A stretch of 64,000 nt of DNA, taken from NCBI GenBank assembly GCA_022865345.1, contig JALHSU010000194.1:9249-73248 (forward strand), written 5' to 3'. The notes below the pieces were generated by a model. The model was given only the letters and a program-made list of their open reading frames with translations, was not told the origin of the DNA and searched no databases. Position 1 is the first letter of the stretch; each line of letters starts with the position of its first letter. The position numbers were made by a program, and so were the translations under genes. Positions 5,320-63,491 of this stretch are shown one piece after another. This DNA is from Candidatus Zixiibacteriota bacterium. GTDB lineage: Bacteria > Zixibacteria > MSB-5A5 > RBG-16-43-9.

Positions 5320-5437
5320 TGTATCACCCTCAAACAAGTTTGAGGGTGATACCCTATACGGGGCTGGGAGCCCCGCCTACGAGAGAAGGGATCTCTTTTT
5401 CCTTTCGTAGGTCGGGCACCCTTGCCCGACTTTTTTG
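5320..5437. repeat. array of four GC-rich hairpins, ending in a hairpin plus T-run (gtcgggcacccttgcccgac tttttt)
   Basis: tcaccctcaaac/gtttgagggtga (12-bp stem), ggggct-ggg-agcccc, cctacga...tcgtagg and gtcgggca/tgcccgac, all within an AT-rich intergenic stretch. Confidence 0.6.
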
Positions 5438-13742: not shown

Positions 13743-13933
13743 GATTTTGAAAAGGTCTCACCCCGATTTAGTATAGCCCATCCCTTTGATGGGTCAACCT
13801 AAAGGTTGATACTCCAACTCAAAATATTGCTTGATAAATCAAGCGACTACAAAATACCCCTACCTGGAAAACCAAAGTCTTCCGCTACAATGTTGAAGAT
13901 TTAATTGAAATGAAGGAATGGATAGGAGAAAAC

Positions 13934-14037
13934 TCAACCCCCGAAAAAATTCTAATCCTTCATCGACTCTAAGAACTTCGGATTGTTCTTGGTCTTTCTT
14001 GTCCGATCCAGTAAGAACTCCATCGCTTCAAGTTGGT
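13934..14037 (-). pseudogene. displaced duplicate of the rho 3' end (last ~28 codons plus ~17 nt of 3' flank)
   Basis: 13951-14037 is about 80% identical to 15220-15306. Reverse-strand translation reads ...[28 protein letters not shown], compared with Rho C-terminus ...[28 protein letters not shown]. The flank aacccccgaaaaaattctaatcc matches aaaccccaaaaagctctaatcc. Confidence 0.8.
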
Positions 14038-14200
14038 TCTGGAATTGGTGTTCCCGAATCAATCCTGCTCAGCCAAGTACGGGAATTCCGATTCCCGCAC
14101 GAACAAGAAGAACTGAAAAACTATTTTGTGAGCAAGATAGATGTTGCGTTTTTTTGGTAAATTACATATAATTATCATAACCACTACTAAAGGAGTAACG

Positions 14201-15082: not shown

Positions 15083-15219
15083 GCTGATAACAGGTAACAT
15101 TGTTTTTACATTGAACGACCTAGGATTAAGTCAAAGACAGGCTGAAGTTTTAATCTTATTCTTCTTTTATGAATGTAAACTAAAGGGCAGATTAAAGAAC
15201 GATTAAACCCCAAAAAGCT

Positions 15220-16467
15220 CTAATCCTTCATCGACTCTAAGAACTTGGAGTTGTTTTTGGTTTTTCTTATCCTGTCAAGCAAGAACTCCATAGCCTCGAC
15301 TGAGTTCATCTCGTTTAGGAATCTCCTTAAAATCCAGATCTTGCTTAACTCCTCCTCAGACAGAAGCAGTTCTTCCTTACGGGTGCCAGAACGGTTGATA
15401 TCCATAGCCGGGAAGATCCTGCGGTCCTGCAGCCGGCGGTCTAAGACTATCTCCATATTTCCGGTTCCTTTGAACTCCTCGAAGATGACTTCATCCATCC
15501 GGCTGCCGGTCTCGATCAAGGCAGTAGCCATAATGGTGAGGCTCCCGCCCTCTTCGATATTCCGGGCTGCGCCAAAAAACCTTTTCGGTTTCTGCAGGGC
15601 GTTAGCATCCACTCCACCGGAGAGGATTTTTCCGCTGTGAGGAACAACTGCATTATGCGCCCGGGCTAAACGGGTGATACTGTCCAAAAGGATAACTACA
15701 TCCTGCTGGTGCTCCACCAGTCTTTTGGCTTTTTCTATCACCATATCTGCCACCTGCACGTGCCGATCTGCCGGCTCATCAAAGGTGGAACTGACCACCT
15801 CTCCTTTAACCGAACGCTTCATATCGGTGACCTCTTCTGGCCTTTCATCGATCAGAAGCACTATCAGCTTTATCTCCGGGTGGTTGGCGGTGACGCTGTT
15901 GGCGATCTTCTGCAGAAGGATAGTCTTTCCAGCCTTGGGAGGGGAGACAATCAAACCCCTCTGACCCTTTCCAACCGGACAGACCAGATCCATTATCCGC
16001 ATAGAGACTTCTTCGGTAGCGGTTTCCAGTTGAATCCTTTTTTCCGGATAAAGAGGTGTCAAGTTGTCAAATAAAACCTTATGTTTTGCCACCTCCGGGT
16101 TCTCGAAATTAACTGCCTCGATCTTCAAAAGGGCAAAATACCGCTCCGAATCCTTGGGAGGTCTCACCTGTCCGGAGATAGTATCCCCCTTCCTCAAATC
16201 GAACCTTTTTATCTGGGAAGGGGAAACGTAGATATCATCCGGGCCCGGAAGATAGTTATAATCCGGGGAACGCAGGAAACCATAACCCTCTGGCAAAATT
16301 TCCAGAACCCCTTCTGCGAAGATAAGTCCGTTTTTCTCAGTCTTTGCCTCTAAGATCTTGAATATTAGATCCTGTTTTCTCAAGCCCGCGCAGCCGGGGA
16401 TGTCTAACTCCTCCGCCAGTTTCAAAAGCTCCGACACGGTCTTGCTTTTAAGCTCAACTATATCCAT
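15220..16467 (-). CDS. rho: transcription termination factor Rho
   Basis: N-terminal Rho_N domain ([23 protein letters not shown]), cold-shock-like RNA-binding domain and a RecA-type ATPase with a Walker A variant (GKTILLQ). Confidence 0.92.
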
Positions 16468-24946: not shown

Positions 24947-25145
24947 AATTTTCCGGAGAGAATATTAAAGATTCGACTGCCCGAATTTTAGTCCACAGGA
25001 CAGAAAGATGATAATAGCTCCCTTTTTCTTAGTCAAGATAAATCTGATGAAGAAGTAGGGGCACGTTGCAACGTGCCCCCACGATCCCACTCAGAAAGCA
25101 GATTGCTTCGTAGTCTAAATGGACTCCTCGCAATATCAGATGATC

Positions 25146-27535: not shown

Positions 27536-27703
27536 ATAGAATCCTTTGAAAGATTTTAAAATATACTTGTGTTCTGTCAGGAGTAGCTCCTGACAGAACA
27601 CAAAAACTCAAGCGGATAATATAAATAAAAAAAATTTAAAGTGGAATTTTTTTTGAGAATTTTTTACAGCGTTGTCACTCCAGTGACAACGTAATGACAT
27701 TTT

Positions 27704-27752
27704 GAGTTGTTCGATTCATCGAGCAAAACTCCCAATAAACTGGGCAACTACA
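27704..27752. repeat. TIR-family T element, copy 1 (degenerate left arm gagttgt...; tcgattcatcgag and cccaataaactggg hairpins; gcaactaca right arm)
   Basis: Aligns with 40595-40745 and 47623-47692. Confidence 0.55.
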
Positions 27753-38744: not shown

Positions 38745-38790
38745 AAAAATTCAGACACTATATAGTTAGTAGCCGCCCTACGGGCGTTTT

Positions 38791-38878
38791 AAACTCATCC
38801 CCTTACCCCTTCTCTTAACAAGAGAAGGGGAACATTAGTCCCTCTCTTTTTTTAAGAGAGGGATTCAGGGTGAGCTCG
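38791..38878. repeat. Correia-like element P, copy 2 (aaactcatcccc ... agggtgagctcg)
   Basis: Hairpin A is ccccttctctt-aac-aagagaagggg (11-bp stem) and hairpin B is ccctctctt-ttttt-aagagaggg (9-bp stem). The TIRs carry 1-2 mismatches. It lies upstream of hemW. Confidence 0.7.
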
Positions 38879-38928
38879 GACTGTTAAATGGTTTACAGTC
38901 AATCGCCTTAAGGTATTCGACGCAATAA

Positions 38929-39471: not shown

Positions 39472-39540
39472 AAAACCTCCTTTTAAAAAGTTATGATTAG
39501 ATATTATTTTTTATCATCCGTTTCTTTTTACCGTCGTTCT

Positions 39541-39651
39541 CGAACTCATCCCCTGGCCCCTTCTCCCCGCCTTTGGCGGGATCTTCGACTTACAAAGAGA
39601 AGGGGGACACAAGTCCCTCTCTTTACAAGAGAGGGATTTAGGGTGAGTTCA
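39541..39651. repeat. Correia-like element P, copy 3
   Basis: TIRs cgaactcatcccc ... agggtgagttc. Hairpin B is ccctctctt-tac-aagagaggg. The cccgcc-tttg-gcggg hairpin sits at a different position from copy 1. It lies in the 5' leader of the lipoprotein gene. Confidence 0.7.
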
Positions 39652-39711
39652 GACTGTGATATGGTTTTCCCCAGCCTACCTTTTTGACTGATAGAGCCTT
39701 GACTTTGCCTT

Positions 39712-39741
39712 TAATAAATTGAGAAATTCTTTGTTTGTCAA
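39712..39741 (-). promoter_or_regulatory. sigma70-like promoter inside repeat module Q3 (TTGACA-N18-TTATTA), reading toward the lipoprotein gene 38929..39471
   Basis: Minus strand: -35 at 39741..39736 and -10 at 39717..39712, positionally equivalent to the promoter in Q1. Confidence 0.5.
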
Positions 39742-39751
39742 CAGGGAAAAT

Positions 39752-39784
39752 AACAAAAAAAAGGGCGAGGAAACCTCGCCCCTA
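39752..39784 (-). terminator. rho-independent terminator of lepB
   Basis: Minus strand: gtaggggcgaggtttcctcgccc followed by TTTTTTTT, about 25 nt after the lepB stop. Confidence 0.7.
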
Positions 39785-39806
39785 CCTGTATGCTGTCTAC
39801 TGTTTG

Positions 39807-40469
39807 CTATTTCACTATTGTCCCTATCCTATCTAGACGCAGTCTATCACCAAGATGTCCTAAATTGTAAAAGATTATCTCCAGAAGAGGGGTGATGTAT
39901 GGGCTTCTGAATTTGGGAGCGTGCGGGTCTTCTGTCCAGGACCAGTACACGATCATCGCTTTGCCTTTGATGAAACTCCGGTCCAAAAAACCCCATTCCC
40001 TGGAATCCTGGCTATTGTCCCGGTTATCCCCTAAGACGAAAAGGTGACCTGCTGGAACTTGAACCGGCCCAAAGTTATCCCTGGTAGAATAATCCTCAGG
40101 CAGGATCCGAGAATCTGAATGTTTTGCCAAAAATGGGTCTGGAATCATTTTCCCGTCCACATAGACAATCTTACTCCTGATCTCCACAGTCTGCCCTTCC
40201 AGGGCAACTACCCTTTTCACCATATCCTTGCTGGGATTCAGGGGGTATTTAAACACAATGACCTCGCCCGGCTTGGGCTCTTTGTAGCGATAATGAAGCT
40301 TATTGACCAGAACAAAATCCCCGGAAAGTAAGGAATCTTCCATTGAGGAAGAAGGAAGCTTGTATGCCTGGACTACAAAAGTTCTCAAAAGGAAAGCAAT
40401 CAAAAGGGATAGGAACAATACTTCTACAAAACCTATAATTGAAGGTTTCTGCTCTTTTCTTTTCATCAT
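39807..40469 (-). CDS. lepB: signal peptidase I
   Basis: N-terminal TM. The catalytic Ser motif is in the SSSMEDSLLSGDFVLVNK block; the catalytic Lys lies in MVKRVVALEGQTV, with the adjacent GDNRDNSQDSR box. Confidence 0.88.
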   Translation of the reverse strand: MMKRKEQKPSIIGFVEVLFLSLLIAFLLRTFVVQAYKLPSSSMEDSLLSGDFVLVNKLHYRYKEPKPGEVIVFKYPLNPSKDMVKRVVALEGQTVEIRSKIVYVDGKMIPDPFLAKHSDSRILPEDYSTRDNFGPVQVPAGHLFVLGDNRDNSQDSREWGFLDRSFIKGKAMIVYWSWTEDPHAPKFRSPYITPLLEIIFYNLGHLGDRLRLDRIGTIVK

Positions 40470-40594: not shown

Positions 40595-40745
40595 TGTAGT
40601 CGCTCGATTTATCGAGCCAAGAACCCGTAGGGCATCCTGCTAAAAGCGGGACAACTTTGAGGATGACATGTACAAACCTGAAGGTCCAAGATGGATCTTG
40701 AGATTTGCCCTACGAAAAAACCAGCCCAATAAATTGGGCAACTAC
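40595..40745. repeat. TIR-family T element, copy 2 (tgtagtcgc ... gcaactaca, enclosing ~130 bp)
   Basis: The 9-bp terminal IR has one mismatch. Inner hairpins are gctcgat-tt-atcgagc and cccaat-aa-attggg. Confidence 0.6.
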
Positions 40746-40761
40746 AATTCATCTGGAGGGT

Positions 40762-43409: not shown

Positions 43410-43437
43410 GGAAATGTAGGGGCGAACTTTGATGGTA

Positions 43438-43459
43438 GAACAGGCATTCCTGCCTGTTC
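43438..43459. repeat. hairpin family H, copy 1 (gaacagGCattccTGCctgttc)
   Basis: Homologous to 47728-47750 (aacagACattccTGTctgtt) with a compensatory double change in the stem. A third relative is at 63375-63395. Confidence 0.6.
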
Positions 43460-43479
43460 AATATAATATAAAAAGAAAA

Positions 43480-43506
43480 ATGGAAGGCTGAAGCCTTTCT
43501 CTACAA
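43480..43506. repeat. repeat family G, copy 2 (atggaaggctgaagcctttctctaca)
   Basis: Hairpin ggaaggc-tgaa-gcctt(t)c, followed by ctctaca. Confidence 0.5.
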
Positions 43507-43589
43507 TAGATTGTAGGAGCAATTCATGAATTGCCCCTACAGGATACTAAGAATTTTGGCTAATACTTATGTAAAGCTGAAACCTTTTC

Positions 43590-47164: not shown

Positions 47165-47626
47165 ATGAAATTCATCTGCGATGACAATCTAGGGAAGTTA
47201 GCCAAATGGTTGAGAACCCTGGGGTATGACACCCTTTTCAGCCAGGAGATAGAGGACACCGAGTTAGTTTCAACGGCTTTAAAGGAAGAAAGGATAATCC
47301 TGAGCCGGGACCAGCAGCTTAAACGGTTCAAATCCGCAGAGAAGAATCTTTTCCTCCTCTCTTTGAACCAGCCCCTGGAGCAGTTGAAAGAAGTTCTGAA
47401 AAAGTTCAACCTTAAACCTGAGGAAAAAAATCATTTTACCCGCTGCATTATGTGCAATACCGTATTGGTTCCGGTTCCTAAAAAAGAAGTAGAGAATAAA
47501 GTCCCGCCCTTTGTCTTCAAGACCCAGGAGAAATTCTTTTATTGTTCTAAATGCAATAAGCTCTTTTGGGCAGGAACGCATGTAAAGAATTTGAAGAAGG
47601 AAATAAGCGAACAGGGTATGCTGTAG
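47165..47626 (+). CDS. Mut7-C (DUF82) PIN-like RNase domain protein with C-terminal zinc ribbon
   Basis: N-terminal MKFICDDNLGKLAKWLR...ILSRD matches Mut7-C. C-terminal CIMCN...CSKCNKLFW is a CxxC...CxxC ribbon. Confidence 0.7.
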   Translation: MKFICDDNLGKLAKWLRTLGYDTLFSQEIEDTELVSTALKEERIILSRDQQLKRFKSAEKNLFLLSLNQPLEQLKEVLKKFNLKPEEKNHFTRCIMCNTVLVPVPKKEVENKVPPFVFKTQEKFFYCSKCNKLFWAGTHVKNLKKEISEQGML

Positions 47627-47692
47627 TTGCTCGATTCATCGAGCTTTTTTTATGTTGCGCCTGGCACTTGCCTGATAAATCAGGCAACTACA
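47623..47692. repeat. TIR-family T element, copy 3 (tgtagttgc ... gcaactaca); the Mut7-C stop codon TAG lies inside the left TIR
   Basis: Perfect 9-bp IR. Inner hairpins are gctcgat-tc-atcgagc and gcctgat-aa-atcaggc (a different sequence, same structure as cccaat-aa-attggg in copies 1 and 2). Confidence 0.65.
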
Positions 47693-47750: not shown

Positions 47751-47778
47751 TGTAGATAAGTGAGACGATTTCAGGTTG

Positions 47779-47864
47779 CGAACTCACCCTGAATCCCTCT
47801 CTTAGAAAGAGAGGGACTAAAGCTCCCCTTCTCTTCCTAAGAGAAGGGTCAGAGGATGAGTTCG
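47779..47864. repeat. Correia-like element P, copy 4 (inverted orientation)
   Basis: cgaactcaccctgaatccc ... ggatgagttcg. Hairpins are ccctctctt-aga-aagagaggg and ccccttctctt-cct-aagagaaggg. It lies between the convergent Mut7-C and GH57 genes. Confidence 0.7.
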
Positions 47865-47983
47865 AGCAAGAACTACTTTCCCCCCCATTCTCCTGTTGGG
47901 TCAGACAAAAATGTCTGACCCACCAATCACCCTCGCCTTACCCCTCCAGTCGAGGAAGGCAATTTGTCCGATGAATCGGGCGA

Positions 47984-61322: not shown

Positions 61323-61350
61323 AATGGAAGGCTGAAGCCTTCCGCTACAT
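61323..61350. repeat. repeat family G, copy 3 (aaatggaaggctgaagccttccgctacat)
   Basis: Perfect hairpin ggaaggc-tgaa-gccttcc followed by gctacat. Confidence 0.5.
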
Positions 61351-63075: not shown

Positions 63076-63491
63076 TCTTTATTCCCTCCTTTGGGGCAAG
63101 GCGAAAATCCCAATCTTTTGTAGGGACAGGGCTTGTCCCTGTCCGACTTCAATACCGATAAACTCCACCCACTCCTCACAGGGCGGAGTTAAACTCCGCC
63201 CCTACGCGGACTTGATTTCATAACCTCTGACAGAAACGTCGGACGCTACGGAATCTTTCCCCTCCCTTGATGGGAGGGGACAGGGGAGGGTGACCCCCTC
63301 TCCCTAACCCTCTCCCACCAGGGGAGAGGGGATTTTTATGCATCGTCACGGACGATGCACTCCATATCAATTATGAACAGACAGGATGCCTGTTCACCTA
63401 CATCTGATAAAAAAACTTCGGGGCTGGGAGAGAAAATTCCCAGCCCCGGGAGGGGAGCTGATGGGCAAAAGAGTTTCAGTCTTTATATCTA
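63076..63491. repeat. ~415-bp non-coding array of at least seven distinct GC-rich perfect hairpins
   Basis: ggacaggg/ccctgtcc; gggcggagtt/aactccgccc; cccctccc/gggagggg; ccctctcc.../ggggagaggg; tgcatcgtc/gacgatgca; gaacag/ctgttc (family H relative); ggggctggga/tcccagcccc. No ORF of 60 aa or more. Confidence 0.65.

Follow-up and report, generated by a model that had tools for sequence, protein, structure and literature searches.

The 64,000-nucleotide stretch of contig JALHSU010000194.1 analyzed here (the window) comes from a Candidatus Zixiibacteriota bacterium and contains three copies of a short repeat with inverted ends, one of which includes the stop codon of a Mut7-C RNase-domain gene. 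What kind of element is this repeat, and what could have moved it? The initial annotation took the copies for a family resembling miniature inverted-repeat transposable elements (MITEs), with 9-bp terminal inverted repeats (TIRs) and a size of 49 to 151 bp that varies through internal insertions. We consider it very likely that they are head-out pairs of GTAG-tagged repetitive extragenic palindromes (REPs) that serve as substrates for a REP-associated tyrosine transposase (RAYT), and that they belong to a new REP/RAYT family (REPtron). The basis for this reading is in silico and consists of the repeat family itself, the covariation of its stems, its extragenic location, its linkage in relatives to a RAYT gene, and what can be reconstructed of how the Mut7-C stop codon arose.

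The three copies do belong to a real repeat family, but the actual repeat unit is a 23-nt module made of TGTAG, which carries the GTAG head, followed by TT and a 16-nt palindrome. One strand is laid out as GC-NNN-AT-RA-AT-NNN-GC and then AACTACA, while the other reads TGTAG-TT-palindrome; the palindrome pairs over 7 bp around an invariant AT(A/G)AAT centre, and the strand opposite the head ends in the AACTACA tail. Allowing up to three mismatches to GCNNGATNNATCNNGCAACTACA, we found seven units in the window compared to 0.12 expected, a number reached by 0 of 100 shuffles. They form three inverted head-out pairs, which had been listed before, and one solo unit between divergent gene starts, which had been overlooked. 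Also overlooked was the module common to both halves of a copy: the 23-nt module of the right half returns in the left half of each as its reverse complement, and because each copy thus pairs two inverted units, the "9-bp TIR" is simply two heads. The module agrees with the definition of a REP as a palindromic unit of 20 to 50 nt behind a conserved tetranucleotide, usually GTAG.

Copy 3 (47622-47692) reads TGTAGTTGC-TCGATTCATCGA-GC, followed by a 25-nt linker and GCCTGATAAATCAGGC-AACTACA; its start is at 47622 and not at 47623. Copy 2 (40595-40746) has one mismatch in its left head, TGTAGTCGC, and a 106-nt linker containing other hairpin modules. Copy 1 (27702-27752) is decayed, with TTGAGTTGT as its left head and one mismatch in each hairpin. 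The differences in size come from this variable linker between 23-nt units and not from insertions into a 49- to 151-bp element. The second hairpin indeed differs in sequence and not in geometry (CCCAAT/ATTGGG versus CCTGAT/ATCAGG), as the initial annotation observed. In a single-stranded DNA (ssDNA) fold, each pair gives two separate hairpins with the heads unpaired.

An exact scan for GCTCGATNAATCGAGCNACTACA, with one genome per species, returned at least 120 loci from about 50 metagenome-assembled genomes (MAGs). The matches listed carry the labels Zixibacteria, Omnitrophota, Ignavibacteria, Brocadiales/Planctomycetes (Planctomycetota), Nitrospinota, Nitrospirae (Nitrospirota), WOR-3/Stahlbacteria, Atribacterota, Firestonebacteria, Desantisbacteria, candidate phyla radiation (CPR) and others; they include two closed chromosomes, and their hosts range in GC content from 0.30 to 0.55. 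At most of the loci listed, a second unit in inverted orientation, whose stem is not the same, lies 7 to 11 nt from the anchored one, and the arrangements comprise 87 head-out pairs, 38 tail-in and 19 tandem arrangements, plus singlets. The head-out linker has a modal length of 7 to 11 nt, and linkers overall span about 1 nt to more than 100 nt. Open reading frames (ORFs) of at least 120 aa make up 78% of the DNA but contain only 21 of 222 units. No viral contig had an exact match to the unit, and a phage vector is without evidence. Within Omnitrophota genome JAZDOX01 (L009, L018, L033, L080, L083, and L091), pairs recur whose linkers are almost the same and whose flanks are conserved over tens of bases, and the same within-genome recurrence was observed in CAYWFU01 (L041, L050, L052, L085, L093, L103, L116, and L118), which suggests recent amplification of composite blocks. 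In this Omnitrophota MAG, the pair forms the center of a palindromic element that is larger (about 150 nt).

For the stem test, the tail GCNACTACA alone served as the anchor and all sites fitting the query pattern were left out, so that 124 sites remained. Seven of seven Watson-Crick stem pairs were present at 83 of these sites and six of seven at another 14 (97/124 with at least six), whereas none of the 22 sites of a control anchor reached five. The 55 distinct sequences contain 62 double-sided stem changes, compared to 22 ± 4.6 after shuffling (62 was reached in 0 of 500 shuffles), and give a covariation score of 0.386 versus 0.176 for shuffled sequences and at most 0.151 for slid-partner controls. 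The hairpins are thus maintained through compensatory changes, as the initial annotation had argued from three copies. Stem variants include GCCCAAT, GCCTGAT, GCCCCAT, GCCTCAT, GCTCAAT, GCCCGAT, GCTTGAT, and GCAGAGC. Inverted neighbors shared a stem in 2 of 65 cases against 16.8 expected, with 0 of 2,000 shuffles as low, and the two stems were unlike in 93 of 95 head-out pairs. Being inverted, heterotypic (63/65), clustered and separated by a variable linker, the units are organized like bacterial interspersed mosaic elements (BIMEs). They do not have the form of REP doublets forming hairpins (REPINs), in which the same REP occurs twice and folds into one long hairpin: here the stems differ and the hairpins are separate.

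These arrangements bear directly on whether the copies could be classical MITEs, that is, deletion derivatives of an insertion sequence with a DDE transposase, moved by their 9-bp TIRs as units of 49 to 151 bp. The inverted ends and variable interiors of the three window copies are what such elements would look like, and the pair-bearing blocks recurring with conserved flanks in JAZDOX01 and CAYWFU01 would also fit. However, neither a target-site duplication nor any other direct repeat is present at the borders of any of the three window copies, the 23-nt unit also occurs solo, tail-in and in tandem, and the supposed TIRs are REP heads. In addition, the sole transposase consistently tied to the units is a single-tyrosine (Y1) HUH enzyme, a type that uses no TIRs. 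We regard a MITE origin as extremely improbable.

The initial annotation had proposed looking for a hairpin-recognizing TnpA of the IS200/IS605 type, and a REP-associated Y1 transposase flanked by units was indeed found in relatives. In a Zixibacteria locus (L045), a 137-aa ORF lies between unit clusters at 427-537 and 1016-1126. This ORF matches Pfam Y1_Tnp with 29.7 bits (cut-off, 23), NCBIfam REP_Tyr_transpos with 71.5 bits (E = 6.7e-20) and the IS200 model with 24.5 bits (E = 2.5e-5). Its best match in the PDB is 4ER8, the TnpA-REP of Escherichia coli (E = 9.8e-9, 38.6 bits), with no other Y1 transposase chain listed at E ≤ 1. The ORF has 4,340 homologues at E ≤ 1e-5, several of which were named RayT by JGI, and all 24 sequences of an alignment have the same His64, His66, Tyr119, Asn123, and Pro124, which belong to the HUH and REYIxNNP motifs. 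With the catalytic motifs present and the RAYT model fitting better than the IS200 model, the enzyme classifies as a RAYT.

Homologues with 54 to 63% identity on long contigs from Brocadiales, Planctomycetes and WOR-3/Stahlbacteria (L126-L135) are all flanked by units, and clusters of 4 to 5 units adjoin the RAYT gene. When metagenome contigs were scanned by protein pattern alone, we obtained 80 RAYT loci, 71 of them with flanks on both sides. Units lie within 350 nt of the gene on both sides in 55 of these 71, on one side in 13, and on neither in 3, while at more than 400 nt from the gene there are 12 units in 110 kb. Of 229 units flanking RAYT genes, 224 have the AT(A/G)AAT center, while their stems vary. 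A REPtron, meaning a Y1 gene flanked by units, is therefore found in L045, in L126-L135 and at 68 of the 71 metagenome loci, and not in the window. From the fixed head, the fixed loop and the covarying stem we infer that the units are substrates of a cognate RAYT.

Could the units be the ends of autonomous IS200/IS605 elements, or derivatives of them comparable to palindrome-associated transposable elements (PATEs), and not parts of a domesticated REP/RAYT system? The enzyme does belong to the Y1_Tnp family and scores under the NCBIfam RAYT cut-off, and the many phylum labels would fit horizontal spread, yet viral contigs are without matches and the RAYT model fits far better than that of IS200 (71.5 versus 24.5 bits). 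The best solved structure is TnpA-REP and not the TnpA of IS608 or ISDra2, and around the gene there are several units of mixed orientation, not a single left and a single right end on one strand. No tnpB-like neighbor was called in the four gene tables of RAYT loci, and a single RAYT, that of L045, was detected by regex search and tblastn in about 0.93 Mb of the unit-rich loci listed. We judge an autonomous IS200/IS605 element to be very unlikely.

Several points nevertheless weigh against the REP/RAYT assignment. The NCBIfam score of the L045 protein, 71.5 bits, falls under the 80-bit cut-off of that model. To our knowledge, no biochemical activity has been reported for this RAYT clade. A RAYT gene was not detected by regex search or tblastn in the 64-kb window, the part of the genome covered by these searches, and because of this the transposase link for the window organism would be one of homology with its relatives. 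The copy statistics rest on loci that the exact scan selected through one unit subtype. Finally, the window pairs have linkers of 5, 106, and 25 nt and one pair is decayed, so recent mobility is not indicated here.

The Mut7-C gene documents the history of one stop codon. Its TAG stop (47624-47626) lies inside the left REP head of copy 3, as do the second and third bases of the terminal Leu codon. The exact protein occurs in metagenome contigs only, which carry the same element, and its closest named homologue is from Zixibacteria RBG_16_43_9 (92% identity). The 153-aa length and a hydrophobic C-terminal residue are kept in homologues down to about 50% identity. Two orthologues with 92% amino acid identity (L136 and L137) have the same pair and end in ctg-TAG, and one with 79% (L140) has a single X unit at the junction, ending in ttg-TAG without a T-run. 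In contrast, the family is absent from two others (L138, 86%; L142, 80%), which end in atc-TAA and atc-TGA. Since these repeat-free orthologues stop at the same codon, the head has overwritten two bases of the last codon together with the native stop. Judged from this comparison, the REP head is a replacement of the Mut7-C stop that left protein length unaltered, and the earlier suggestion that the element supplied the stop holds. That the ends of GTAG REPs frequently supply TAG stops had been noted before (Di Nocera et al. 2013, PMC3733652). Among our units the head TAG is an in-frame stop in 7 of 222, versus 3 and 6 for the other two frames, and is thus not enriched.

Some metagenome contigs with Mut7-C end at or near the element, 2 nt (L005) and 183 nt (L001) past the stop, which is consistent with assembly breaks caused by repeats. 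Among RAYT loci (L126, L128, L129, L135, L156, and others), the TAG of an adjoining REP head serves as the stop of the RAYT gene itself in 23 of 83, and at several other RAYT loci the stop is a TAA within or abutting a REP unit; in L163 and L164 the TAA is that of the ATAAAT loop itself. Such overlap is far commoner than for ordinary genes (7/222) and hints at a coupling between RAYT expression and the REPs.

The X hairpin of copy 3 (47629-47644), followed by T7 (47645-47651), fits the pattern of a plus-strand intrinsic terminator and begins 3 nt after the Mut7-C stop. This raises the possibility that the repeats are host-selected RNA elements (3'-untranslated-region hairpins, terminators, stabilizers or a three-way-junction noncoding RNA) and that RNA function drives their conservation. 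An RNA fold closing the outer stem (z = -4.2) and the occurrence of G-U-compatible stem changes agree with this idea, as does ribosome stalling by REPs within 15 nt of a stop codon, which has been reported for E. coli according to the work cited in PMC12306157. However, a T-run directly follows only 19 of 222 units and is missing at the stop-overlapping unit of the L140 orthologue. Units are found in all orientations and gene contexts, including between divergent starts (13829), the length of their linkers shows no constraint (about 1 nt to more than 100 nt), and they are strongly concentrated near the RAYT gene. Rfam gave no match across the whole window, with only sub-threshold hits at the element (RsmY, 18.5 bits versus 57). 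An RNA element as the primary explanation is very unlikely, although slightly less so than the two mobile-element alternatives above. Selection as the Mut7-C terminator, which the initial annotation had offered as another option, finds no support as a general property of the family, in view of the rarity of T-runs and the unenriched stop overlap. Because so few units have a T-run and L140 has none, any terminator, stabilizer or translation-damping effect on Mut7-C may be incidental to copy 3.

Other candidates were also rejected. A general terminator role does not fit a T-run after 19/222 units only. Cyanobacterial small dispersed repeats, considered on account of heptamer repeats in the window, do not fit a single HIP1 in 64 kb or a closest named Mut7-C homologue from a Zixibacteria MAG. 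Integron attC, CRISPR repeats, dif-like sites and hammerhead-type three-way junctions have the wrong arrangement of core motifs, and the dispersed copies and negative Rfam result also speak against them.

The REP/RAYT reading allows a mechanism to be proposed, in which each 23-nt unit, when exposed on ssDNA, would fold into a hairpin of 6 to 7 bp with its GTAG head unpaired. The RAYT, a TnpA-REP of the Y1 HUH type, would bind the folded hairpin, by analogy with the TnpA-REP enzymes of E. coli, Stenotrophomonas maltophilia and Marinomonas (PMC8266576). TnpA-REP binds and cleaves single-stranded REPs and not their complement, cleavage requires GTAG, and for the short perfect-palindrome REPs of S. 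maltophilia (23 nt), specific loop bases and an intact stem are needed (PMC8266576). Our RAYT would likewise read the GTAG head and the AT(A/G)AAT loop region while the stem merely has to pair, and a stem needed only in paired form would explain the covariation. Cleavage at a nearby site would proceed through a 5'-phosphotyrosine intermediate, and rejoining of the strand elsewhere would spread units or pairs across intergenic DNA. Different stem subtypes within a pair would let the units fold separately, avoiding one long perfect palindrome and giving two distinct ends. At Mut7-C, a pair lies exactly where the gene ends, and its head overwrote two bases of the final codon and turned a TAA- or TGA-type stop into TAG. 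In the mRNA, the hairpin and U-run of copy 3 might incidentally terminate transcription, stabilize the message or dampen translation. Enzymatic mobilization, recognition of loop and head, and any effect on mRNA are proposals from analogy with these systems.

This anatomy (GTAG head, short perfect stems, head-out dimers, TAG donation, flanked RAYT) is already documented for GTAG REPs and BIMEs; new here are the unit sequences and the uncultivated hosts. The closest parallel is the GTAG-REP superfamily (PMC3733652), with SMAG/REPtron Sm of S. maltophilia and the Pseudomonas group-3 repeats. Its members share with our units a GTAG head in front of a perfect stem of 6 to 9 bp with a tiny loop, a short overall length (S. 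maltophilia units also have 23 nt) and a Y1 gene flanked by repeats. Complementary changes in the stem set their subfamilies apart, as they do in our family; dimers of the head-out (HH) type are common and predominate, and the TAG of the head is sometimes the stop of a flanking ORF (PMC3733652). The conserved loop and free stem match the experimental requirement of group-3 TnpA-REP for loop and GTAG (PMC8266576). Our family differs in its AT(A/G)AAT center and TTGC spacer, in the short RAYT of 137 aa and in hosts from uncultivated lineages (Zixibacteria, Brocadiales, WOR-3/Stahlbacteria, Omnitrophota, Nitrospinota, and others). Its stem and loop sequences occur in no paper searched: the 14-nt hairpin strings were not found and the 9-mers matched only unrelated primers.

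As in the REPs and BIMEs of E. coli, with their y and z1/z2 REPs, two subtypes are inverted around a variable linker in extragenic DNA, often right after stop codons. The E. coli TnpA-REP (RAYT group 2; 4ER8) is the closest solved relative of our RAYT, although the protein match is distant (38.6 bits), and E. coli REPs are about 35 nt long with a bulged, imperfect stem needed for activity, unlike the short perfect stems described here. The REPIN of Pseudomonas fluorescens, defined as two inverted copies of one REP and proposed as the replicating unit (Bertels and Rainey 2011, PMC3116915), likewise has a short spacer and a single linked RAYT. It differs from our pairs, whose stems are unlike in 63/65 cases and whose units fold separately; furthermore, REPIN-RAYT systems have been described as vertically inherited within lineages, whereas our family appears under many phylum labels. 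IS200/IS605 elements and PATEs also combine a Y1 HUH enzyme acting on single-stranded hairpins with the absence of TIRs and target duplications, but in those elements a single left hairpin and a single right hairpin lie on a common strand, tnpB is frequently present and there are multiple copies. Here, the gene is found once, bracketed by many short units, and its product fits the RAYT model better.

How long units persist can be seen in DATKKH010000197.1 (L042), which is syntenic with the window from 34.2 to 42.6 kb at about 80 to 85% nucleotide identity and whose Terriglobales label is probably wrong. In the lepB-lepA spacer, the window and L042 agree at 22 of 23 positions in each outer unit; the interiors are different, and there is one extra unit in L042. 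The units therefore outlast the surrounding intergenic DNA at orthologous sites. The synteny of L042, together with the Mut7-C match to RBG_16_43_9, makes the deposited taxonomy of some unit-bearing MAGs doubtful. RAYTs are only 50 to 74% identical while exact 23-mers are common to many phylum labels. It is conceivable, though we hold it tentatively and at slightly less than even chances, that a single REP/RAYT lineage with a near-frozen code (GTAG head and AT(A/G)AAT loop), strictly heterotypic pairing and a RAYT stop often embedded in a REP exists in more than 10 phylum labels (those named above, from Zixibacteria to the CPR), through either repeated cross-phylum transfer of the whole REPtron or persistence of a REP sequence for much longer than in the vertically inherited, lineage-specific systems known from Pseudomonas and enterobacteria. 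This breadth would depend on deposited phylum labels, at least one of which is doubtful.

The features of the window that belong to the family, with the units of the pairs labelled X or Y type, are collected in Table 1.

Table 1. Positions of the repeat units, their linkers and the Mut7-C gene in the window
Feature	Position	Strand	Remarks
REP unit, X type (copy 3)	47622..47644	-	minus strand reads GCTCGATGAATCGAGC-AACTACA; plus strand, head-first, TGTAG-TT-GCTCGATTCATCGAGC; hairpin in ssDNA fold
Linker of copy 3	47645..47669		25 nt; begins with TTTTTTT (47645-47651)
REP unit, Y type, head-out partner (copy 3)	47670..47692	+	GCCTGATAAATCAGGC-AACTACA
REP unit, X type (copy 2)	40595..40617	-	plus strand TGTAGTCGCTCGATTTATCGAGC; kept in lepB-lepA spacer of L042
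Linker of copy 2	40618..40723		106 nt; GTAG/CTAC-flanked hairpin modules CCGTAGGGCA...TGCCCTACG, AAACCTGAAGGT; not conserved in L042
REP unit, Y type (copy 2)	40724..40746	+	GCCCAATAAATTGGGC-AACTACA; 15 nt downstream of opposite-strand lepA stop; kept in L042
Decayed X-type unit (copy 1)	27702..27724	-	3 mismatches to module; head TTGAG
Y-type unit (copy 1)	27730..27752	+	TCCCAATAAACTGGGC-AACTACA; one stem mismatch
Solo unit	13829..13851	+	GCTTGATAAATCAAGC-GACTACA; another compensated stem, GCTTGAT/ATCAAGC
Mut7-C RNase-domain gene, 153 aa	47165..47626	+	Pfam PF01927, E=1.7e-48

Other repeats are present in the window. A longer family (about 100 to 200 nt), in which CCCCTTCTCTTAAnAAGAGAAGGGG hairpins occur along with a GGGATTCAGGGTGAGTTCG segment, is found at 30750-30960, 38785-38912, 39536-39750, and 47765-47871. 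The last of these follows copy 3 at a distance of only some 70 nt, and the family probably corresponds to the first MITE-like family of the initial annotation. Perfect hairpins tagged with CTAC or GTAG and having unrelated stems were found at 20 sites compared to 4.25 in shuffles, for example, at 5359-5430, 25055-25078, 31101-31123, 39763-39785, 43435-43541, 61326-61348, and 63120-63205; they include GGGCGAGGAAACCTCGCCCCTAC (twice) and GCAATTCATGAATTGC, which has heads on both sides. Several GTAG-REP classes thus seem to exist in this genome. Adjoining copy 1, the palindrome CGTTGTCACTCCAGTGACAACG (27670-27691) lies behind TACAG, and its L042 counterpart, TGTAG-CGTTGCCACTCCAGTGGCAACG, shows a compensatory T-A to C-G change, marking another REP-like family. 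Tandem arrays of the heptamer CTGTCTA (27790-27811, 31147-31176, and 39782-39808) are short and intergenic, and a terminator-like hairpin lies close to every one of them. The stretch 13940-14039 is repeated directly (100 nt, 81% identity) at 15208-15307, which overlaps the 3' end of rho (15220-16467, Pfam Rho domains); the former copy, near the solo REP unit, looks like a duplicated rho 3' fragment.

For annotation, these results show that what looked like MITEs in a Zixibacteria-like genome are repeats of the REP/BIME type, and the signature TGTAGTTGC plus a palindrome with an ATRAAT center flags hundreds of intergenic sites and the metagenome assembly breaks that result from them. The Mut7-C overlap cleanly illustrates how a REP head can take the place of a native stop with protein length unchanged. 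For the REP/RAYT field, the family would add a compact system outside Proteobacteria, with a 137-aa enzyme and a predicted 23-nt perfect-palindrome substrate in which natural covariation marks the free positions (stem) and the fixed ones (head and loop). The family is notable mainly for being nearly unchanged under many uncultivated-phylum labels and, if this breadth is true, it would bear on the strict vertical inheritance of REP/RAYT systems.

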